32,000 bases of DNA from Erysipelotrichaceae bacterium MTC7 (GCA_001695645.1 LVZN01000009.1:17177-49176), one strand, 5' to 3'. Numbered from the stretch's first letter, positions 2,405 through 27,184 are shown. The notes: generated by a model from the sequence alone, not told the origin. Translations and numbers: made by a program.

Positions 2405-3202
2405 ATGGAATTATTACAAATTTTGATGTTGGCAATTGCAACGTTTATTTTTGCGATTGATCAATTTTCATTAACGGAAGTTATCTACCGGCCAATTGTT
2501 GCATGTCCGATTATCGGTTTGATACTGGGGGACTTACAAACGGGACTACTGGTTGGTGGAACTTATGAATTGATGATGGTTGGGAATATGCCAGTTGGAG
2601 GTGCCCAACCACCAAATGCAGTACTCGGTGGAGTTGTTGCGATGGTGTTTGCAATTAAGGCAGATATGGGAATTGATGCAGCTTTAGGAACAGCGGTTAT
2701 ATTCTCAGTGTTTGGACAATACGCCGTGACGTTAACATTTACTGTTATGTCAGGATTGATGGCAAAAGCCGATCAAGCTGCAATTAAAGCAAGTAAGAAA
2801 GGTATTCGAAATGTAAATATGCTTTCAATGCTATTGCTTGGAACTCTATTTGCTTTGATGTCAATACTTGCATATGTTGGAGGAAGTGCTGCAGCTAAAC
2901 CATTACAAGAATTTGCAGCAAACTTCTCATGGGTTATGGGAGGACTTGATGCAGCTGGAAAAATGATGAAGTATGTCGGTTTTGCGATTTTACTAAAAAT
3001 TATGTTATCGAACGACTTATGGGGAATTTACTTAGCTGGGTTTGCAGCGGCAGCATTGCTTGGTAATGTTGATGCAACAAGAGGAGCAACACTTGTGCTT
3101 GTAGCATTTATTGGGGTTGCACTTGCAATCAATAACTTCGTAACTGCTGTACAGATTCGTAACAATGGAAGTAATTCAGGAGGTATGTCTGATGGAATCT
3201 AA
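2405..3202 (+). CDS. PTS mannose/fructose/sorbose-family EIIC component
   Basis: Polytopic hydrophobic protein with MELLQILMLAIATFIFAIDQF... and GNMPVGGAQPPN, typical of ManY-type IIC. I prefer the ATG at 2405, which has AGGAG 5 nt upstream, over the track start at 2381. Confidence 0.85.
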   Translation: MELLQILMLAIATFIFAIDQFSLTEVIYRPIVACPIIGLILGDLQTGLLVGGTYELMMVGNMPVGGAQPPNAVLGGVVAMVFAIKADMGIDAALGTAVIFSVFGQYAVTLTFTVMSGLMAKADQAAIKASKKGIRNVNMLSMLLLGTLFALMSILAYVGGSAAAKPLQEFAANFSWVMGGLDAAGKMMKYVGFAILLKIMLSNDLWGIYLAGFAAAALLGNVDATRGATLVLVAFIGVALAINNFVTAVQIRNNGSNSGGMSDGI

Positions 3203-4283: not shown

Positions 4284-5777
4284 TATGTCTTTTATATGGG
4301 AATTGATAATTGATTCTAGATACTTTTTGTTTATCCAAAAACATTGTTTTGTCATCCATTCACCGTTAGGTAGTTGATCTGCATGTCTTTCAATATTTCC
4401 TTTATGAAAACCGTTGTTCAAGAGATATGCAGACTTACTTGCATGTGGCCTGATGTGTATAATAGATGTATTTTTTTCTCCCAATAAGCTGTTAAAAACG
4501 CTAGCTCCACTTACTTCAAAACTGACGCCAAGTTTAAATTGATTAATGTAGTTTTCCCATTCGTGTTTAACGATTTCATCAATATCATGTATTGGCATGT
4601 TCCATAGAAAACAGCCCTTCAATATATATTCAGTTCCATTGTTAACATATACAACAAATAAGAATTTTGTTTCTGATAAAGTATTATACAAAGTTGAACT
4701 ATCCCATTCTTCTTTGATTAATTCCATGATTTCAAAGTTTGGAAATGGCATAGATTCTCTTATTCTTCCATTTTGTTCAACGCGAATGGATTTTACTTTG
4801 ATACTTGCTTTTGTAAACTCTTCTGCTTGATTACTTTTTACGCCTAGCATTCGAAATGCAAAGTCAGCGAATTTGCTCTTATTGCTTTTTACATCTGGAA
4901 ATATTGAAAATAATTCAGATTCTGATTTTCCAATATACGAGTTTATTTTGCTCGTAATAAAACTTTCAAAGGTTGAAGTTAATTTCGTGTCATCTTTAAG
5001 TATTCTTTCTTCTTCGTTTTCATTCAGAATAAGTTTATGAAGAACGTAATTCATGTAACTTTGCTTAAGTGAGAAAGCTCGTTTTTTTGTTAAAGTGTGT
5101 TCACCGTAATATTGTGGAACAACATCCTCTTTATTTCTAGCCTTTGTACAAGCTCCAAGGTACATTGTATCACCTTCACTTAACATGTGAGCTTGACCGG
5201 CTTTGATTTTATTATTAATTGTTTGATAATCTTGTTTAATAATTTCTAGGTCTTCTTTTGAAGGCGTAAACAAATTTACATACTTGATGATATTGTCATA
5301 CTTATCTTCAAGGTTACGATCGCGTAAATAGTGAATTAATAAGATTTTTTGGATTTTGTTCCAAAGATGACTTCTATCAAAATCATCTTCAACAGCTTTG
5401 TTAAAAGCAATGTTGGTAATTACAAGACGTTCTCCAGCACGGTATGAACCATCCTTTTTAATATCAATAGGGGCTTGTTTCAATTCTAAACCTACTTTTG
5501 GAAAATCGGGGCGTTGATCACTGTTTGGTTTGTATCCAAAATAGTTTTTCTCAATAATGTTACCAAAGTTACCTTTTGCATTGTTGTCTTTGTATGATGC
5601 TCCATACGCTGAAGGTTTATCTGCAACTTTATAAGCGTCCAAGCTGTGTGCCTCTTCGTAGTTTTTATATGCGGATTTGTCCCATTCATCAATGATTTGG
5701 TTGAAGGATTGTCCAATTAATCGATTCGCATACTGAAGGATGCTTTGGATATCATCGTCTTTATAATCAAATAGCAT
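4278..5777 (-). CDS. Type II restriction endonuclease, Sau3AI/MutH family (probable GATC specificity)
   Basis: 499 aa. It carries the MutH-like catalytic region ...DFPKVGLELKQAPI. Several segments recall Sau3AI as I remember it: KQDYQTINNKIKAGQAHMLSEGDTMYLGACTKA, KKRAFSLKQSYMNYVL and EWMTKQCFWINKKYL. It is paired divergently with a C5-MTase, as in the Sau3AI system. Confidence 0.8.
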   Translation of the reverse strand: MLFDYKDDDIQSILQYANRLIGQSFNQIIDEWDKSAYKNYEEAHSLDAYKVADKPSAYGASYKDNNAKGNFGNIIEKNYFGYKPNSDQRPDFPKVGLELKQAPIDIKKDGSYRAGERLVITNIAFNKAVEDDFDRSHLWNKIQKILLIHYLRDRNLEDKYDNIIKYVNLFTPSKEDLEIIKQDYQTINNKIKAGQAHMLSEGDTMYLGACTKARNKEDVVPQYYGEHTLTKKRAFSLKQSYMNYVLHKLILNENEEERILKDDTKLTSTFESFITSKINSYIGKSESELFSIFPDVKSNKSKFADFAFRMLGVKSNQAEEFTKASIKVKSIRVEQNGRIRESMPFPNFEIMELIKEEWDSSTLYNTLSETKFLFVVYVNNGTEYILKGCFLWNMPIHDIDEIVKHEWENYINQFKLGVSFEVSGASVFNSLLGEKNTSIIHIRPHASKSAYLLNNGFHKGNIERHADQLPNGEWMTKQCFWINKKYLESIINSHIKDIK

Positions 5778-19232: not shown

Positions 19233-19259
19233 GTAGCACTCTTGTATCACGAGTGCTAA
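19233..19259 (-). promoter_or_regulatory. CIRCE operator (HrcA binding site)
   Basis: gTAGCACTC-N9-GAGTGCTAA matches the consensus TTAGCACTC-N9-GAGTGCTAA at 17/18 positions. It lies between the promoter and groES. Confidence 0.9.
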
Positions 19260-19266
19260 CGCCAAT

Positions 19267-19295
19267 ATTCTAGAATTGAAAGTAAAATTTGTCAA
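19267..19295 (-). promoter_or_regulatory. groESL sigma-A promoter
   Basis: On the minus strand: TTGACA (19295-19290), a 17-nt spacer, then TAGAAT (19272-19267), directly upstream of CIRCE. Confidence 0.75.
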
Positions 19296-19317
19296 GTTAT
19301 CAATTAAAAAAAATAAA

Positions 19318-20439
19318 TTACTTAATAGTCTCGATCATTATTGGATTAGAATTACTATTAGTTAATGTATCATTGAGTTGATTTGAAGCAATCTTATCTA
19401 GGAATGATGCGAGATGGTATTGTTTATTAGGGTATAGATGAGAGTAAGTACGAAGTGTCGTTTCGATTTTTTCATGCCCAAGTCTGTCCTGAACAATGTT
19501 TGGTTGAATTCCTTGTTCAATGAGTAGAGAGGCATGAGAATGTCTTAAATCATGAATTCGTATTCGCTTAACATTCGCAATCTTAGCATATTTTTCAAGT
19601 TCTCTTGAAAGCCGACTCTTGTTAGTCATAAAAACTTGTTCTTCCTTATCGATAAAGTAGTATCGGTCAACGTAATCTTTTATCATTTGAGTCAGAAACT
19701 GAGGTATTGTTACTATTCGTTCTGACTTTTTTGTCTTAGGTTTGGTGAAGATATATTCACCATTTTCATATTGAGCAGAGTGTGTTATTTCAATATGTCC
19801 TCGGTCAAAATTAATATTCTTTAGTCGAACTGCAATTAATTCACCAACACGAATTCCTGTATAAAATAGTACATTGAATTGTAATCTTGATGATTCATCG
19901 TCGACAACGGATATAAACTTATCAAATTCTTCTTTTGTCCAGAAGTTCATACTTGAAGGATGTTTAGAACCAATTGCAGTAGTTTTCTTTAATGGATTTC
20001 TTTGAAGTTCATAGAAACGTTCTGCATGATTGAAGATAGCTACAAGTTGATTGTTGATGGATCGTGCATAGGTATCTTTAAAATGAAATCCTAGAATCTT
20101 ATTTTGCCACTTAATAATATCAGGTGTTGATATCTTGGCAAGTTTCTTAGATCCGAGATAAGGTTGAATATACTTATCATAAATCACCCGTTTATTCTTA
20201 ATGGTATTGTAACGGAGTTTATTTGAAATATCACTCAAATAGACTTCATAGAATTCATTTAGTGACATATCAATTTCTACTTCGTTACTTAAATTACTGA
20301 GATATTCAGTTTCCCATTCTTTAGCCTCCCGTTTGGTAGGAAATCCACGTTTAGCTCGTCGCTTCTCTTTACCGTCAATATCAGTATAACGTAGGGTTAC
20401 GACCCATTTACCAGTTTTCTTATCTTTATACGCTGACAT
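19318..20439 (-). CDS. int: Tyrosine site-specific integrase (Tn916/phage-integrase type with N-terminal arm-binding domain)
   Basis: 373 aa. It has the N-terminal arm-type domain KKTGKWVVTLRYTDIDGKEKRRAKRGFPTKREA and the catalytic residues R (GIRVGEL), HDLRHSHAS and GHEKIETTLRTYSHLY. Confidence 0.95.
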   Translation of the reverse strand: MSAYKDKKTGKWVVTLRYTDIDGKEKRRAKRGFPTKREAKEWETEYLSNLSNEVEIDMSLNEFYEVYLSDISNKLRYNTIKNKRVIYDKYIQPYLGSKKLAKISTPDIIKWQNKILGFHFKDTYARSINNQLVAIFNHAERFYELQRNPLKKTTAIGSKHPSSMNFWTKEEFDKFISVVDDESSRLQFNVLFYTGIRVGELIAVRLKNINFDRGHIEITHSAQYENGEYIFTKPKTKKSERIVTIPQFLTQMIKDYVDRYYFIDKEEQVFMTNKSRLSRELEKYAKIANVKRIRIHDLRHSHASLLIEQGIQPNIVQDRLGHEKIETTLRTYSHLYPNKQYHLASFLDKIASNQLNDTLTNSNSNPIMIETIK

Positions 20440-20620
20440 GATGGCTTACCTCCGTATTATGAATGTAATAGTTTTCGTAGAAGAATTTACGGGATGTCTT
20501 TCCTTGGACAGTACGATATCCTTTTTCTTTAAGAGATTGATTTAAATCAGAGATAATGCGATAAGCACTGGACCTACTAATTCCAAAAAGAGTCATAATT
20601 TCATCTACCGTTATTAACAT
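20426..20620 (-). CDS. Excisionase-like small HTH protein (DUF3173-like)
   Basis: MLITVDEIMTLFGISRSSAYRIISDLN... It overlaps the int start by 14 nt. The track start at 20635 is ATGGAGGAATCAATTATG, whose GGAGG is a perfect RBS 8 nt upstream of the second ATG at 20620. I therefore prefer the shorter 64-aa form. Confidence 0.7.
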   Translation of the reverse strand: MLITVDEIMTLFGISRSSAYRIISDLNQSLKEKGYRTVQGKTSRKFFYENYYIHNTEVSHHVSV

Positions 20621-20640
20621 AATTGATTCCTCCATTTCAT

Positions 20641-20668
20641 TAAAAAACCAATTGAACTAATCAATTGG
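20641..20668 (-). terminator. Weak intrinsic terminator/attenuator between the XRE gene and xis-int
   Basis: On the minus strand: CCAATTG-attagtt-CAATTGG followed by TTTTTTA. The 7-bp stem spans the XRE stop codon. Confidence 0.45.
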
Positions 20669-20920
20669 TGGTAGGGTGTGTGATTCAAGTAATTCTGACA
20701 ATGTGATGTCAAATGCACGAGCAATTTTTCCAAGGACATAAATAGTAACATTGCGTTTACCCATTTCTACATCATATAGATACTGTGGGTGTAGTTCTGC
20801 TTGCTTTGCAAGTTCTGCGCGTGGTAGTTCTCTTTCAGAGCGAAGGAGTGCAATCTTTAAACCAAGACTGGTTACAAGTTGCTTTTCTTCACCCATCATT
20901 TCTTTTGTTGCAAATCCCAT
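20657..20920 (-). CDS. XRE-family HTH transcriptional regulator (cI/Cro-like)
   Basis: 87 aa with LGLKIALLRSERELPRAELAKQAELHPQYLYDVEMGKRNVTIYVLGKIARAF, an HTH_3 pattern. AGGAGG (20929-20934) lies 8 nt upstream of the ATG. Confidence 0.9.
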   Translation of the reverse strand: MGFATKEMMGEEKQLVTSLGLKIALLRSERELPRAELAKQAELHPQYLYDVEMGKRNVTIYVLGKIARAFDITLSELLESHTLPPID

Positions 20921-20940
20921 AATGATTACCTCCTAGGACA

Positions 20941-21494
20941 GTTGGTTTTCGCAACACAACACTATCACATGTTTCTCAACATATCTATCAGAATATGACT
21001 TAATAACACAAGCGAGTGATCCAGCTCAAAAAGGACTGAATCACTCTATCTGTTATCAAATCAAAAGATGATTTGTTTAAAAATGTTAAATTGATATTTT
21101 CGTATCTACGAAGTAATCATCTTCGTAGCATTGTTAGGCGTAGTTTGAAATCACTGCTTCACTGGAGTTTCACCGCTCCCAATCAAGGAAGCACCTATTT
21201 AGCCTGCGACGGTCTTATCACGCTCGGACGTCCAAAGGTGGAGTATCATTATCACTATCAAAGTTTTGGCATCATAGTTTTTCAAACTATTTCATCATCT
21301 AAGTTTCATCGCTCTCTAGGTTTCTTAAGGTCACAGCGCACTGATGAAAGTTGCTCGGTTGATAGATAAAGTCACTAACAATGGCTATTCAATTTTCAAA
21401 GAACATTCTCACTAAATTGAAGTGAGAAGAGGAGGATAAAAATCAACCCCTCTATAGTGATAAGGAATCTCCGAGCACTTTGACAACCAAAAAA
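20941..21494. ncRNA. ORF-free, GC-elevated, hairpin-rich region: candidate large structured RNA or long regulatory leader (strand unresolved; flanking genes are on the minus strand)
   Basis: No ORF of 60 aa or more on the minus strand. G+C is 104 of 240 (43%) in 21121-21360, against visibly AT-rich flanks. A long-range helix pairs 21346-21358 with 21471-21481. Local hairpins lie at 21014-21046, 21106-21128 and 21408-21426. See findings for details. Confidence 0.35.
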
Positions 21495-21908
21495 TCAAAA
21501 AACAATCAAATTTCTTAGTTTATTGATGATTTTTTCATGTTTTTTACTAATACTCTGCTTTGTAACACCAATAGCTTGTGCATATTCAGTTTGAGTAAGT
21601 TCTTTAAAGTATAAAGCTATGATTAGGTCTTTTTCATCATCAGTAAGTGAATTAATTGATTGGTAAAGTTCTTCGTATCGTTCCATTTTAAGCACCTCGT
21701 TTCTTGTAGGGTCTAAATCCTCGATTAATTGAATTTCTAATGTGTTACTTTCATACTCACCAAAAAGATGGTCTAAGTATATCCAACTCTTGCGAATTTG
21801 CTTTGTAAGATAACGTTCATGCTCAATACTTTTCCAATATTCTCTATAAACATCTTCGTTAACGTTGACTGCTTGATCATTAATGTAGATTACATATGTA
21901 TCTTTCAT
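21495..21908 (-). CDS. Sigma-70 region-4-like HTH protein (Tn916 ORF7-type conjugative-transposon regulator)
   Basis: 137 aa counted from the ATG at 21908, which has AGGAGGA 8 nt upstream. The C-terminal LTDDEKDLIIALYFKELTQTEYAQAIGVTKQSISKKHEKIINKL is a sigma region 4 / LuxR-like HTH. The track's longer form (to 22019) has no RBS and runs through a terminator hairpin. Confidence 0.75.
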   Translation of the reverse strand: MKDTYVIYINDQAVNVNEDVYREYWKSIEHERYLTKQIRKSWIYLDHLFGEYESNTLEIQLIEDLDPTRNEVLKMERYEELYQSINSLTDDEKDLIIALYFKELTQTEYAQAIGVTKQSISKKHEKIINKLRNLIVF

Positions 21909-21980: not shown

Positions 21981-22035
21981 AAAAAACCTCCATTCTAAAT
22001 GAGTTTGACGTGATGCCAAACTTCATTTAGGGAGG
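21981..22035 (-). terminator. Intrinsic terminator in the leader of the sigma-like gene
   Basis: On the minus strand: CCTCCCTAAATGAAGTTTG-gcatcacg-TCAAACTCATTTAGAATGGAGG. This forms about 17 bp with one internal loop and one bulge, followed by TTTTTT. It lies downstream of a candidate promoter (TTGATT, 16 nt, GATAAT) near 22095-22125. Confidence 0.65.
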
Positions 22036-22206
22036 CTCACTAAAAAAGCAAGAAAGCGATTCCATTGGCTATACATTTAGTGTAATTCAATGTTTAAAAA
22101 TTATCATCCCTTAACAAAGGTAATCAAATTAATCAAGTAACATTTAATGTTTTTCAAGGGTAAACTTTATAATGGAAAGGATAATTTTTTAATGAAAAAG
22201 GTGAAT

Positions 22207-22809
22207 ATGGAACAATATGGATATGTCAGAGTATCAACAAAGGATCAAAATGAAGAACGGCAAATTGTAGCACTTAAAGAATTCGGGATAAAGAATGATT
22301 ATATTTACTTGGATAAAGAGAGTGGGAAGGATTTTAATCGAAGACAATATAAAAAACTCCTTCGTAATGCAAAAGAAGGAGATCTGATTGTAGTTAAAAG
22401 TATTGATAGGTTGGGTCGAAATTATAAAGAAATACTTGATCAATGGAGAAAAATCACGAAAGAAAAAGGAGTTAATATTTTTGTTTTGGATATGCCACTT
22501 CTTGATACAAGAGAGACTGAGAAAGATTTAACGGGAACTTTTATTGCAGATTTGGTACTTCAAATATTGTCGTACGTTTCAGAAGTTGAAAGAAACAATA
22601 TAAAACAACGCCAAGCAGAAGGTATAGCGATCGCGAAAGCTAAGGGTGTAAAGTTTGGACGAGAACCCAAGGCAATACCTATTAATTTCGAGCGTGAATA
22701 TGAATTATGGAATAGAAATGAAATCTCTGCGAGAGAAGCTGGGCGCAGGCTATGTGTTAATCATTCGACATTTTTAAAGTGGGCACGGGAAGTTAAAAAT
22801 GATAGTTAG
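22207..22809 (+). CDS. Small serine recombinase (resolvase/invertase family)
   Basis: MEQYGYVRVSTKDQNEERQ carries the catalytic Ser motif. It also has VKSIDRLGRN, EVERNNIKQRQAEGIAIAKAKGVKFGR and a C-terminal HTH. I prefer the ATG at 22207 (AAGGTG upstream) over the track start at 22147. Confidence 0.9.
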   Translation: MEQYGYVRVSTKDQNEERQIVALKEFGIKNDYIYLDKESGKDFNRRQYKKLLRNAKEGDLIVVKSIDRLGRNYKEILDQWRKITKEKGVNIFVLDMPLLDTRETEKDLTGTFIADLVLQILSYVSEVERNNIKQRQAEGIAIAKAKGVKFGREPKAIPINFEREYELWNRNEISAREAGRRLCVNHSTFLKWAREVKNDS

Positions 22810-22975
22810 TGTCTCGTTTTGATTATAAAGGTTCACTTTCAAATCCGTTAATGTTATACTTAATCTAAAGTGGGATTAGCTTGTTTTATTTGAATATAAT
22901 GCAGTAATTTGATTAAAATTCATTGGCTATAAAAGTGAGCTTTCCCACCATTTAGAAATATAGGGAGGTTTTAAA

Positions 22976-25900
22976 GTGAAAAAACTTAGAATAACGACAC
23001 TAATTTTAGTGATAATGTCTTTGTTTTTGTCTGTTTCAAATGTATTTGCTGAAACAAGCAGTAATGCAAATAGCGATGATGAACCAAAAGAAATTGGAGA
23101 ACGAATCGGGAATTCAGATATAAACATATTGGACACTAGTTTAATTGTGTTTACAGATGATTCTGGTGCAATTATTGAGAATCCGACAATTAATGCAAAA
23201 GTAAACATTCGGTTTGATTGGTCATTTGAAAATTCCGAATCAATTCTCATACAAGAAGGAGACTATTTTACATTTCAATTACCAAATGATTTCAAAATTA
23301 ATACTGAAATGTCGGGAAGTCTTGGAGAATACGGGATCTTTATCATTGACACTCAAGGAAATGTAAAATTCACGTTTAACGATGCTGTGAGTCAAAACTC
23401 AAATGTGCATGGTTTTATAGAATTCAGTGCGCGTTTGAATGAAGAAACTATTGGAGATCCTGGTGAGAAAGTGATTGAGTTACCAATCAGTGAGAACAGT
23501 GAATTCAAGTTCAATGTTACACCTACCATTAAAGACACCACAATAGATAAGACAGGGGATTTTGATAAAGAGTTGAATCCTGGATATATCACATGGGAAG
23601 TCAAAATTAATAAAGCATATGAAACGCTTAATGATGTTGTGGTTACGGATGATATACCCGAGGGTTTAATTCTTGAAGAAATAGAGATTGTTCCCTTAAA
23701 TCTAAATCATGATGGCAGTTTTAAATCATATGGTGACAAATTATCCGAGTCAGAGTAGACAACGGATGACTCGGTAGTTCGTTTTAACCGCTCAATCAAT
23801 CAGCCGTATGCTATTCGTTATATTACAAAAATCGATGATGCTGTAAAACCTAACGATGGTGGCGAAGTGGAGTTTAAAAATTTTGCGAAAATGACATCTA
23901 ATGAGAATGAAGAAATAACAACAGATTCAACAATTTTTGCAAAATATGGAAAACTATTAACAAAAACAAAACCATCTTACAACGCTAACGAACAATCTTT
24001 CACGTGGACAGTTGAATATAATTATGGTGAAAAAACAATTGTGAACCCACTTTTAGTGGATGTTTTTGATGAGGATTTAGAGTACGTTGAAGGATCACTT
24101 GTTATCACAGATTCTAAAAATCAAAAAGTTGAATATGATTATACACTTACCAATAGTCCAAAGAATAAACTGGATATTCAATTTAATGAATCTGTTTCTG
24201 AAGCATTAAAAATCAGTTACAAAACAAAAGTAAAAGACGGAAGACTTGTTTTGGAAAATGAAGATTTTGAGAATAGTATTTCAACCGGTGGAACGACTAG
24301 TGGCAATACAGGAACTGCCCAACCACGTATGATTATTAAGTATTCACCAGCTATTGATTATCAAAACAAGAGAATTGATTGGCAGATAGATGTTAATATC
24401 AATCGTTATGAAATACATGATTACGAATTAATTGACACTTACTTATATAGAGGATTAAACCTCTTAGATTCGTCTTTTGAGATTTACGATGTTACTGCGA
24501 ACAAAGTGGTAGAAGCATCTAACTATGATTTAGTTAAAACTACAGAGGCTGGTGTTGAAATAGGATTCACACTTTTATTTAAAGGTGACTATGCTACTAC
24601 ATCCAGTCAATTACAAGTTCGCTTCACAACAGACTATGATGTAAATGATTTAATCGCTGGAAATGGTTCTACATTTAGAAATCATGTGAAATTAGAATGG
24701 ACAGATCAGTACGACAATAAACACACGCATTCAAGCCAAGCAGATAGGGGCGTTAATTCACAGACTGTGAATAACGGTCAAAAGTCTGGTAGCTATAATG
24801 CTGTTTCAAAAGAAATCACGTGGAAAGTTGATGTTAACTATAATTCTGAGAATTTAAGTAATGCAAAGATTGTTGATAAAATACAAGAGGGACAAACCTT
24901 TGTTGAGGATTCCTTGATCATTAGAACCTATACAGTAAATTCAGATGGAACATTGACGATCAGTGATGAATCAGAAGATTTGAGCAAATTTGTTATTGAA
25001 TATCCGAATCAAGAAAATGAATATGAATTGATCATTTCCTTGCCAAATGATAATGAGAAGAAATACTCAGTTGAATTTAGAACATCAGTAGACAGCCAAG
25101 CAGTTAAGACAAACTATCAAAACAGAGCTGTTTTCACTAATGATCAGTATACTCGCAATTTAGATGCTTCAGTGACTGTTACGAATGGTGATAAATTCGT
25201 TACTAAAACCGGAAATCAAGAAGGTTCTCTAATTCATTGGTCAATAGCAATCAATGAATCGCAATCGACAATAAAAGATGCAGAGATACATGATAATCCT
25301 TCAATCAATCAAATTCTGATTGAAGAGTCATTTAAATTGTACCCAGTTATTGTTCAGACTGATGAAACATATGAAGTTGATTACAACAATCCACTTCAAA
25401 TAGATACAGATTACTCTTTAGAAATAAGTACAGACCTACAGGGTAAACAAACATTTGTGCTTAAGTTCGTTGATGTAATTGAAAGAACTTATGTGCTTGA
25501 ATATGATTCGCAAATTAGCACAACTCCAGATGATACAACTATCTCAAATACAGTAACACTTAAAGGAAATGAAATTAGCTATGAGGATGGAAATGGCGAA
25601 ACATCCATTGTCATTGACGTTAATCAAGCAGGTGGTGGTGCTGTTGGAGTTAAAGGAACACTCACAATCCAAAAAACAGATGAAAATGGTAATCCACTTG
25701 AAGGTGTAGAATTTGAATTATACAATCCATTACAAAGAAAAGTTGCAACTCAATTAACAGATGTTGAAGGTAAGATTGTCTTCCAAGGTCTTGTTTATGG
25801 TGACTATACAATCAAAGAGACACAAGCTTTAGAAGGCTATGTGATTAGTGATGAACTCTTTGTCGGTAAAAATTTGATAGTTAATGAAGAAACATCAGAT

Positions 25901-27184
25901 CCAAATCATGTTATTGTCCTAGAGAACAGAATGAATTCACTAATAATTCACAAAACGGATGGGGATGGTCAAGCGCTTAATGGTGCGGTGTTCAAACTTG
26001 AAGTACAAAACGAGGAACTTTACGAATTGGTAAATCAAGATATTACGATTACTGATGGTAGTGTTACTTTAAAAGGTTTGAAAGCTGGAATGTATCGTCT
26101 GAGCGAACTTAAAGCACCACAAGGATATATTCGTAATGTAGAACCTTTAGAATTTAAGATTGAAGCAAACGCTAATGGTCAAGAAATTGATTTGAGCATT
26201 GACTTTGTAAACTATAAAGGAAGTGTAAAACTTTCAAAAACTGATTCTTTAGGAGAGACTCTAACAGGAGTAGTCTTTGATTTATTTGACTCTAATGATG
26301 AAGTAATCTTGGAAGGACTAACTACTGATGAAAACGGAGAAATTCTGATTGAAAATGAACTTGCTCCCGGAAATTACTATTTTAAAGAGAAGGAATCAGT
26401 TAACGGAAATATAGTAAATGAAACTCCAATTAGGTTTGTGATTTCTAATGACACTAGTGGTGTCCCAGAAGTAGTTGAAGTTAAAGCAACTAATTTCAAA
26501 GGATCTGTAGAGTTCAAGAAAACAGATGATCAAAATAATGGTTTATCAGGAGTGGAATTTGAACTTTACTATGAAAATCAAAGTGAACCATACGTAGTCG
26601 TAGTTTCAGATGAAAACGGTGTTGTCCGTGTTGATCAACTTGCGCCTGGTACATATCAATTTAGAGAGAGTAAAGCACAATTCGGATACATATTAAACAC
26701 GGACACTATCAACTTCGTGGTTCCCGAAAAGACTCAGAATGAATTTGTATTGATAGAACTGGATAATTTTATCAACTACAAAGGCGGAGTAAATGTTAGA
26801 AAAGTTGATGAAAAAGGAAATCTACTTAAAGAGGCAACTTTCGAACTTAGAGATGATAAGAGAAATATATTAATCTCAAAAGTAACAGAGAACGGTCAAG
26901 TATCGTTTGATGAACTTAGTCCAGGAAAATATATACTCGTGGAAACTAGTGCACCCGAAGGCTATGTTCTAGAGGAAAAGGAAACACAGTTTGAAATTGC
27001 TGAACAATTTGTAGGGGAATATACTTTCAGTACAATTGATATTGTAAACAAACTTAAACCGAAGTTACCTGGTGAGATGCCACCTACTGGAGTATCGAAT
27101 GATTTATTCTATACCTCTTTGCTGGCTATTGCAGTCGGTTCATTATTGTTAATTATTAGTAGAAAAAAGAAAAAACATATTTAA
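22976..27184 (+). pseudogene. Cell-wall-anchored Cna/SpaA-type adhesin (~1402 codons) interrupted by one in-frame TAG at 23756-23758
   Basis: Track ORFs 22976-23758 and 23867-27184 are in the same frame. Translation across the gap, ...LSESE*TTDDSVVRFNRSINQPYAIRYITKIDDAVKPNDGGEVEFKNF..., contains no other stop and continues the repeat pattern. The protein has a signal peptide MKKLRITTLILVIMSLFLSVSNVFA and five collagen-binding-like modules (the W.V.(I/V)N motif occurs 5 times). It also has five SpaA/Cna-B repeats and a C-terminal MPPTG followed by a hydrophobic segment and RKKKKH. Confidence 0.85.
25655..27049 (+). repeat. Five tandem ~94-aa (~282-nt) SpaA/Cna-B-type repeats within the adhesin
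   Basis: The repeats start with GTLTIQKTDENGNPLEGVEFEL, SLIIHKTDGDGQALNGAVFKL, GSVKLSKTDSLGETLTGVVFDL, GSVEFKKTDDQNNGLSGVEFEL and GGVNVRKVDEKGNLLKEATFEL. Each ends with a ...P.GY... segment. Confidence 0.85.

Follow-up and report, generated by a model that had tools for sequence, protein, structure and literature searches.

A structured RNA with the pemK motif in an Erysipelotrichaceae mobile element is a probable antiterminator of the canT type

In Erysipelotrichaceae bacterium MTC7, a gap of 554 nucleotides (nt) separates a small sigma-like gene from the repressor, excision and integration genes of a mobile element, and gene callers leave it empty in all six look-ups that had a gap-spanning contig, raising the question of what this DNA does. 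We analysed the gap within a window of 32,000 nt (LVZN01000009.1:17177-49176, positions counted from its first letter), for which a sequence-only reading had suggested a large structured non-coding RNA inside the element's regulatory module. Conservation, covariation and an Rfam match bear this core idea out. The RNA of the gap is a long-form member of the canT/pemK RNAs, with ~140 nt of extra 3′ structure, and not a new class. Our analysis indicates that the gap probably encodes a cis-acting processive antiterminator RNA of the type described as canT in Tn916, with the pemK motif as its conserved core.

Scanning both strands of the whole window with cmscan against 4227 Rfam families gave a single family above its gathering threshold, the pemK RNA (RF02913), at 21159–21252 on the minus strand. 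The match scores 36.8 bits (gathering score 34.8) and covers all model positions (1–61/61). For comparison, homologues of the sigma-like protein were collected and the loci encoding them were fetched (numbered L001 onward), with the window as identity reference; the window and the loci of related elements that carry a homologous gap are referred to here as the window family. The pemK match recurs at the same offset in L001–L004. Around the motif, which is its core, a conserved region extends over at least 270 nt (~550 nt in the window family; the Rfam model has 61 positions). The gap and the parts of its core are as follows.

20941–21494, minus strand: the gap, a conserved non-coding module of 554 nt between the sigma-like gene and the gene of an XRE-type repressor
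21135–21253, minus strand: pemK/canT core, comprising AUAAUGAUAC, P0, P1 with its insertion, P2, P3 and the start of P4
21202–21229, minus strand: conserved P1 insertion GUCCGAGCGUGAUAAGACCGUCGCAGGC, near-identical in Tn916 and in IMG/VR loci
21250–21252, minus strand: AUA starting the pemK motif (the window match starts at 21252), positional counterpart of the bases changed in canT(S3) of Tn916

Helix P1 closes a conserved insertion of ~41–45 nt, which counts as a loop insertion in the Rfam model. Its sequence GUCCGAGCGUGAUAARACCGUCGCAGGC hardly varies from Tn916 to the window, with a shorter variant in Tn1549 and Tn5397-like loci. Conserved single-stranded elements are AUAAUGAUAC at 21243–21252 and the GGUGAAAYUCC loop at 21164–21174, and the P3 loop reads GGUGAAACUCC. 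The motif is said to come from work by Weinberg et al. in NAR in 2017, the main text of which does not mention pemK.

We built a covariance model, R1, seeded with 15 sequences (Tn916, Tn1549, a Tn5397-like element, two other plasmid loci and ten IMG/VR loci), all taken from outside the window family. Searched against the 32-kb window, R1 gave one match, at 21135–21253 on the minus strand, with 59.6 bits and an E value of 1.8e-13, and it matches every window-family locus at the same place. In an alignment of 33 sequences (A7), 96% of cells are paired and 15 of the 17 pairs carry compensatory changes; 143 cells show two-sided changes against 43 ± 5 in shuffles, none of 500 shuffles attains the observed covariation score, and slid controls are 40–54% paired. 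Covariation of P0–P3 is supported also in a seed-only test. RNAalifold misassigned P1 in the cross-family 3′ alignment, and this helix was set by hand and with model R1. Membership in the pemK family is supported by the score above the gathering threshold together with the compensated helices P0–P3 and the conserved single strands.

Two kinds of side observation concern this core. In one homologue (L016, 3415–3975), a 9-nt deletion takes part of the pemK P3 loop (GGUGA/GAAG), lowering the R1 score to 35.6 bits, and the integrase (4464–5585) is split into two open reading frames (ORFs); judged by sequence, this looks like a decaying copy in which RNA and recombinase are degenerating together. 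Short sequences also recur: GUGAUAA occurs twice in the gap RNA, at the pemK motif start and in the P1 insertion (21243–21258 and 21209–21216), GAGCGAU in the 5′ domain (21306–21316) appears again as GAGCGUGAU in the P1 insertion, and CGCCAUGAC-like blocks are present twice in other families. Such recurring sequences could serve as repeated sites for binding or offer alternative partners for pairing.

The function of this core is suggested by Tn916, whose canT is a 452-nt antiterminator between orf8 and xis, with orf8 following the sigma-like orf7 (Wirachman and Grossman, PLoS Genet 2024, PMC11658703). canT is sufficient alone, works in one orientation only and in cis only, and is processive, acting on heterologous terminators and on multiple tandem terminators at a distance (PMC11658703). 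In the Tn916 copy that we examined, in pCF10 (L023), the functional 452-nt fragment corresponds to 2666–3117, and pemK matches the canT strand at 2823–2923 with 55 bits (E 9e-9). The inactivating 162-bp canT deletion, at 2769–2930 by the paper's coordinates, removes the whole pemK motif, and the canT(S3) mutation, ATA to TGC at nt 283 past the orf8 stop, falls at 2823–2825, the first three bases of the motif's AUAAUGAUAC. The corresponding AUA of the window, at 21252–21250, is conserved, with few aligned sequences deviating (e.g. ACA, GUA). The canT paper contains no mention of pemK or Rfam (PMC11658703), and in the literature searched we found no publication joining the pemK RNA or RF02913 to Tn916; among the papers listed there, canT and Tn916 occur together in the original report alone.

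The likeness to Tn916 extends beyond the motif. As in Tn916, the RNA follows an Orf7-like sigma-region-4 gene and precedes the excision/integration genes, all on one strand, and a spurious antisense ORF overlaps it; the canT stretch was formerly annotated as an antisense gene, orf5, which is dispensable (PMC11658703). Both RNAs have the pemK motif with the same conserved P1 insertion, the 5′ blocks UGUUCUUUGAAAAYUGAAUA, CGCCAUGACC and GAGCGAU, and a long-range helix abutting the pemK motif; a likely further parallel is the presence of terminators downstream, represented in the window by the conserved one between XRE and xis. Homology to the functional Tn916 fragment is carried in the core by the R1 match, with weaker support in the 5′ domain. 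The proteins are only distantly related: the sigma-like protein and Xis have no BLASTP match between Tn916 and the window, and Int shows 24% identity; the window element also differs in carrying a MobL relaxase and a DUF3991/Toprim protein. That the RNA is kept despite this distance points to the RNA, not the proteins, as the most constrained part of the regulatory module.

The same order, in which a region-4 protein is followed by the RNA, by a gene for Xis, TnpW, PemK toxin or XRE and finally by a tyrosine or serine recombinase, recurs in six further element families. Annotated Tn916, Tn1549, L039–L041 and the three IMG/VR loci tested by Pfam all have a region-4 protein ahead of the RNA; in L042, no region-4 coding sequence is listed upstream of the RNA. 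The gap RNA shares the Bacillota mobile-element context of the pemK RNA motif, with PemK/MazF toxin genes downstream in related loci: in four IMG/VR loci (L025, L031, L033 and L037), such a gene (PF02452, E 1e-37) comes after the RNA and is followed by a large serine recombinase, which accounts for the name of the motif. The interval between RNA and PemK toxin contains no obvious antitoxin ORF in several IMG/VR loci.

The nucleotide conservation of the gap exceeds that of every neighbouring gene. In at least 13 related elements it is 83–94% identical to the window; at the same loci the sigma-like gene shows 67–84% identity, XRE 71–92%, xis 70–97% and int 77–92%. The gap is ~570 nt long in each gap-spanning locus that keeps the XRE gene, and the module is retained also next to other downstream genes: L007 and L017 have a different integrase module there, and L009 has nothing. 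Its borders had been placed correctly in the sequence-only reading, at the stop codon of the sigma-like gene (21495–21497) and the XRE ribosome-binding site AGGAGG (20929–20934, minus strand), and the G+C count given there for 21121–21360 (104/240, 43.3%) is exact; G+C is 37.2% for the whole gap, 33.8% for the window and 30–34% for the flanking genes. A blastn search of the gap against PLSDB plasmids gave no match at E ≤ 1e-5, because the shared blocks are too short to reach that value; plasmid copies were found when the Tn916 and IMG/VR cores served as query. Four metagenome contigs (L019, L020, L021 and L022; three from public-run assemblies and one from a metagenome-assembled genome) break off inside the gap, 55–408 nt past the sigma-like stop. 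Assemblers behave in this way at sequence common to several elements in a sample, which fits the high conservation of the RNA.

The folding energy of the sense (minus) strand is −149.8 kcal/mol (z = −4.4 versus shuffles), and that of the antisense strand −126.8 kcal/mol (z = −3.2). RNAalifold on 14 window-family sequences predicted 126 consensus pairs, with 98% of cells paired and compensatory changes at 18 pairs compared with 7.9 ± 1.8 in shuffles, figures that are not independent of the structure, which was taken from the same alignment. The strand is indicated by R1, which matches the minus strand only, and by 201 G-U cells that become mismatches on the other strand, where 87.5% of cells are paired compared with 98.0% on the sense strand. 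Together, conservation and covariation show that the fold of the gap RNA is under selection. Its 3′ hairpins are the following.

21140–21157, minus strand: P4 hairpin, directly after the pemK motif; three of five pairs compensatory within the window family
21106–21128, minus strand: P5 hairpin CUACGAAG/CUUCGUAG, window-family-specific; 8 base pairs, two of them compensatory
20997–21062, minus strand: P6, a long imperfect hairpin of 26 predicted pairs, window-family-specific

Well supported are the hairpins 21428–21453 and 21408–21426, the long-range helix LR1 described below, pemK P2, and P4, P5 and P6. In P6, 97–98% of cells are paired, with three compensatory pairs and many G-U pairs that are mismatches on the other strand; a P4-like hairpin is visible by eye (uncounted) at the same place in aligned sequences of other families. 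The four hairpins recognised in the sequence-only reading (21408–21426, 21428–21453, 21106–21128 and 21014–21046) are kept in 14 homologues, three of them through two-sided changes and 21428–21453 mostly through one-sided G-C/G-U changes; the last, 21014–21046, proved to be the tip of the 66-nt hairpin P6. The complementary strings listed there are all present, two of them offset by 1–2 nt.

Not all of the pairings proposed from these strings are conserved. A helix closing the domain (21348–21358/21471–21481) is paired in 58% of alignment cells and a loop pseudoknot in 65%, neither with an excess over shuffled controls, and we rejected both as conserved features. A third pairing, TATCACTAT/ATAGTGATA, keeps its complementarity in 94% of cells, yet none of its variation is compensatory; an alternative partner is GUGAUAAG within the pemK P1 insertion. 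When alignment A5 was read by eye, the inner P1 helix (GUC/GGC), the apical GCG/CGC and window-family helices 1–2, formed by the 5′ leader with the P1 insertion, were either invariant or broken without compensation. A GCA/UGC helix (21352–21354 with 21269–21271) shows apparent between-family covariation by eye and could not be placed in Tn916.

Upstream of the core, the RNA consists of a 5′ domain and a leader with these features.

21254–21405, minus strand: 5′ domain, with its blocks and internal hairpins, closed by LR1
21386–21405, 21329–21338 and 21306–21316, minus strand: 5′-domain blocks UGUUCUUUGAAAAUUGAAUA, CGCUGUGACC and GAGAGCGAUGA, respectively, common to Tn916 canT
21359–21365, minus strand: LR1 5′ strand CUAUCAA, pairing with 21255–21261
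21255–21261, minus strand: LR1 3′ strand UUGAUAG, directly 5′ of the pemK motif
21406–21494, minus strand: 5′ leader, with a phage-shared motif, hairpin 21428–21453 and hairpin 21408–21426 followed by a U-rich tract

An nhmmer profile of the window-family 5′ domain, from which the pemK part was excluded, placed its top seven matches directly 5′ of a pemK core on the correct strand. All seven loci belong to other families, with E values from 6.8e-6 (L035) to 0.13; the Tn916 match (2660–2760, E 0.023) overlaps the 5′ part of the functional fragment. LR1 joins the bases just past the conserved RAUACNUU motif with those just before AUAAUGAUAC. Within the window family three of its seven pairs are compensatory (columns 147–246 of alignment A2 read AU 6, CG 4, GC 4), and other families have a helix of unrelated sequence at this position, for example CGAUAAGAA/UUCUUAUCG in Tn916 and CUCUUUGUG/CACAAAGAG in L031. 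The mean duplex energy is −10.4 kcal/mol with the own partner and −5.0 kcal/mol with a cross-family partner; the anchors used for these duplexes were mis-set for L035 and L039 and uncertain for L027 and L032, and L034 was dropped. RNAalifold predicted zero pairs on the cross-family MAFFT alignment of the 5′ domain, because the helices are misaligned in it.

Both leader hairpins are conserved, 21408–21426 with compensatory changes. A motif of the leader, UGGUUGUCAAAGUGCUCGGAGAUUCCUUAUCACUAUAGAGGGG (21438–21489, minus strand), is an 88% match to Erysipelothrix phage phi1605 (L043, 1501–1690), where three degenerate copies in tandem lie ahead of a small ORF and a site-specific recombinase, with no pemK/canT core. 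This motif (TTGTCA-17-TTATCA) may be a promoter or operator common to recombination modules, and this possible role at the DNA level makes the predicted pairing of the leader with the P1 insertion doubtful. The hairpin at 21406–21428, together with the U-rich start of the conserved block UUGUUCUUUGA, resembles an intrinsic terminator just before the canT core. A terminator-like hairpin is found at this position also in L023 (~2643–2668) and L025; it covaries and recurs across families, and the published active Tn916 fragment begins past it. Such a hairpin could gate entry into the antiterminator.

How this RNA could act follows from its place among the genes and signals of the window.

21992–22019, minus strand: promoter-like site TTGGCA-16-TAGAAT upstream of the sigma-like gene, candidate transcript start, from a consensus scan
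21495–21908, minus strand: sigma-like, Orf7-like small protein with sigma-70 region 4 (PF04545, E 2e-8, Pfam)
21073–21369, plus strand: spurious antisense ORF of 98 codons, counterpart of Tn916 orf5, not conserved
20920–20657, minus strand: XRE-type repressor gene
20647–20669, minus strand: intrinsic terminator at the XRE stop codon, before xis (9-bp stem and UUUUUU), proposed read-through target
20635–20426, minus strand: gene for an Xis-like protein
20439–19318, minus strand: tyrosine integrase gene

On the minus strand, the order is promoter-like site, sigma-like gene, gap, XRE, xis and int, followed by host groES/groEL. Genes for a MobL relaxase, a DUF3991/Toprim protein, a type IV coupling protein and an HTH_36 protein lie upstream and are oriented alike, and the nearest protein relatives are those of Erysipelothrix rhusiopathiae. 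From this gene content, an integrative mobilisable or conjugative element has one of its ends within the window. The XRE–xis terminator is kept in seven other loci, with differing stems (for example CCAAUUGA/UCAAUUGG versus CCAGUUGA/UCGACUGG) but each time as a hairpin before a T-rich tract.

In the mechanism that we propose, a transcript would start upstream of the Orf7-like sigma-region-4 gene and cross it into the gap. The nascent RNA would then fold into the 5′ domain closed by LR1, the pemK core P0–P3 with its P1 insertion, and hairpins P4–P6. By analogy with Tn916 canT, the folded RNA would stay on its own polymerase and make it resistant to terminators, so that the modified polymerase could pass the XRE–xis terminator and xis and int would be expressed. 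After excision, the polymerase could cross the joined ends into the co-oriented relaxase and transfer genes, as has been proposed for transcription of Tn916 (PMC11658703).

Several points weigh against this assignment. The Rfam score of pemK is marginal, 2 bits over the threshold, and the 5′-domain likeness to Tn916 itself is borderline. The window copy has C-A mismatches in P3 and P4, and the hairpin of CGCCAUGAC with GAGCGAU, strong and covarying in other families, is weak in the window. Tn916 has orf8 and no XRE gene, whereas the window has no orf8 and places XRE between the RNA and xis; Tn916 also does not have the ~140 nt of extra 3′ structure (P5, P6). The promoter-like site was assigned by consensus match, and the counterpart of the Tn916 T1 insulator, which the element's distal end should carry, would fall beyond the window. 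Contact of canT with polymerase is suspected only, even for Tn916 (PMC11658703). Finally, both ends of the gap (the first ~60 nt and the last ~55 nt) may function at the DNA level, as promoter or operator.

Among other explanations, the one that survives best is an ordinary cis-regulatory leader (an attenuator, a riboswitch-like sensor or a protein-binding leader) that acts non-processively on XRE-xis-int only. The sequence-only reading had offered a long regulatory leader for these genes, which comes close to our preferred explanation, a canT-type antiterminator acting in cis. Rfam types the pemK RNA as cis-regulatory (Cis-reg), the leader contains the terminator-like hairpin at 21406–21428, a terminator follows XRE, and inverted repeats in the last ~55 nt of the gap are a possible XRE operator. 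We nevertheless regard such a leader as unlikely: the Tn916 RNA acts on heterologous, multiple tandem and distant terminators, unlike local attenuation, the conserved core does not overlap any terminator stem, and the module is unchanged though the downstream gene varies (XRE, another integrase module, PemK toxin or Xis).

A trans-acting small or large RNA, or a protein sponge, with the sigma-like protein, a toxin or a host factor among its conceivable targets, would be in keeping with the high sequence conservation, with the GUGAUAA and GAGCGAU repeats as possible protein-binding sites and with the PemK toxin genes after the motif in some families. It is nonetheless highly improbable, as canT given in trans fails to complement a mutant and leaves the wild type undisturbed (PMC11658703), and as a consensus scan finds no minus-strand promoter-like site inside the gap and there is no discrete terminator before XRE.

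Still less probable is that the region works as structured single-stranded DNA, for example as a single-strand origin or priming site for conjugative or rolling-circle replication, even though it is hairpin-rich, orientation-specific and part of a mobile element, and such a role would suit a motif tied to plasmids and conjugation. In the Tn916 map legend, sso916 and canT are separate entries, canT is active in a chromosomal transcription reporter with no replication or transfer functions (PMC11658703), and RNA tolerates the 201 G-U cells better.

A decayed or unrecognised protein-coding gene can be practically dismissed: the TTG-started plus-strand ORF 21073–21369 is, as had been reported, the sole ORF of at least 60 amino acids, but it is intact only in the window and a 99%-identical copy (L001) and broken into pieces in other homologues, the gap alignment has single-base indels and indel lengths that are not multiples of three, and a Pfam search of the ORF gave no match, which together refute the decayed gene considered in the sequence-only reading. 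The limit of 16 codons stated there for minus-strand mini-ORFs was too low; we found ORFs of 28, 24 and 19 codons with TTG starts.

We also compared the gap RNA with other known RNAs. A resemblance to ROOL, GOLLD and similar ornate RNAs, which had been raised on account of size and context, was rejected for want of a covariance-model match: of ROOL, GOLLD, HEARO, OLE and raiA, none reached the gathering threshold in the window and none appeared at E ≤ 10 in 20600–21900. In pLS20, pCF10 and other Gram-positive conjugative plasmids, the conAn2 RNA acts with the ConAn1 protein, of which PrgR of pCF10 is a homologue (Miguel-Arribas et al., NAR 2021, PMC8191782). As proposed for the gap RNA, conAn2 heads the transcription of conjugation genes as a large RNA and brings about antitermination in cis; like the gap RNA, it is preceded by a small protein gene. 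ConAn1, however, belongs to PF17362, whereas the upstream protein of the window matches sigma-70 region 4 (Sigma70_r4) only, and the prgR-prgS region of pCF10 has no pemK or R1 match and no sequence relation. Membership of the conAn system was rejected on these grounds; conAn is a functional analogue of the gap RNA, not a relative. Analogues cited for canT are the put RNA of phage HK022 and EAR, from the eps operon of Bacillus subtilis (PMC11658703). Both are RNA-only cis-acting processive antiterminators, as proposed for the gap RNA, but neither has an Rfam match in the window, and their size, fold and genetic context differ.

Outside the regulatory module, two further features of the element were seen. 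A serine resolvase and a two-part collagen-binding LPXTG adhesin with Cna-B repeats are inserted between the HTH_36 and sigma-like genes (22147–27184), whose distance is ~390 nt in relatives such as L012; the adhesin reading frame is split into 22976–23758 and 23867–27184. At the other side, the integrase stop codon (19318–19320) is ~20 nt from a near-consensus promoter, TTGACA-17-TAGAAT (19295–19267), and the CIRCE operator of groES/groEL, TTAGCACTC-N9-GAGTGCTA, lies at 19259–19234, which places the element directly upstream of the groESL heat-shock operon and in the same orientation. No clear terminator was seen between int and groES/groEL (19234–19320), and terminator-resistant transcription leaving int could enter groESL.

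For the window alone, these results amount to an annotation; their added value lies in the connection between pemK and canT and in a covariation-backed partial fold. The latter, in which LR1 closes a 5′ domain beside the pemK core, is a first partial architecture of this kind for canT-like RNAs and can steer mutagenesis and structural work. Once the canT mutations are placed on the pemK motif, a testable function can be assigned to an Rfam family for which the sources consulted state no mechanism. On balance, we lean towards a broader view in which pemK is the core of a widespread canT class, comprising large (~270–550 nt), multi-helix, cis-acting processive antiterminators in diverse conjugative and integrative elements of Bacillota, nearly always accompanied by an Orf7-like sigma-region-4 protein; the window would then represent a long form, to which the P5/P6 domain and the XRE–xis terminator add a regulatory layer. 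If this holds, many existing pemK annotations would gain a function and canT would have a covariation-supported fold. By timing the expression of excision and transfer genes in a conjugative element, antitermination would bear on the spread of its cargo, which in the window element is a collagen-binding surface adhesin in an Erysipelothrix-type genome.

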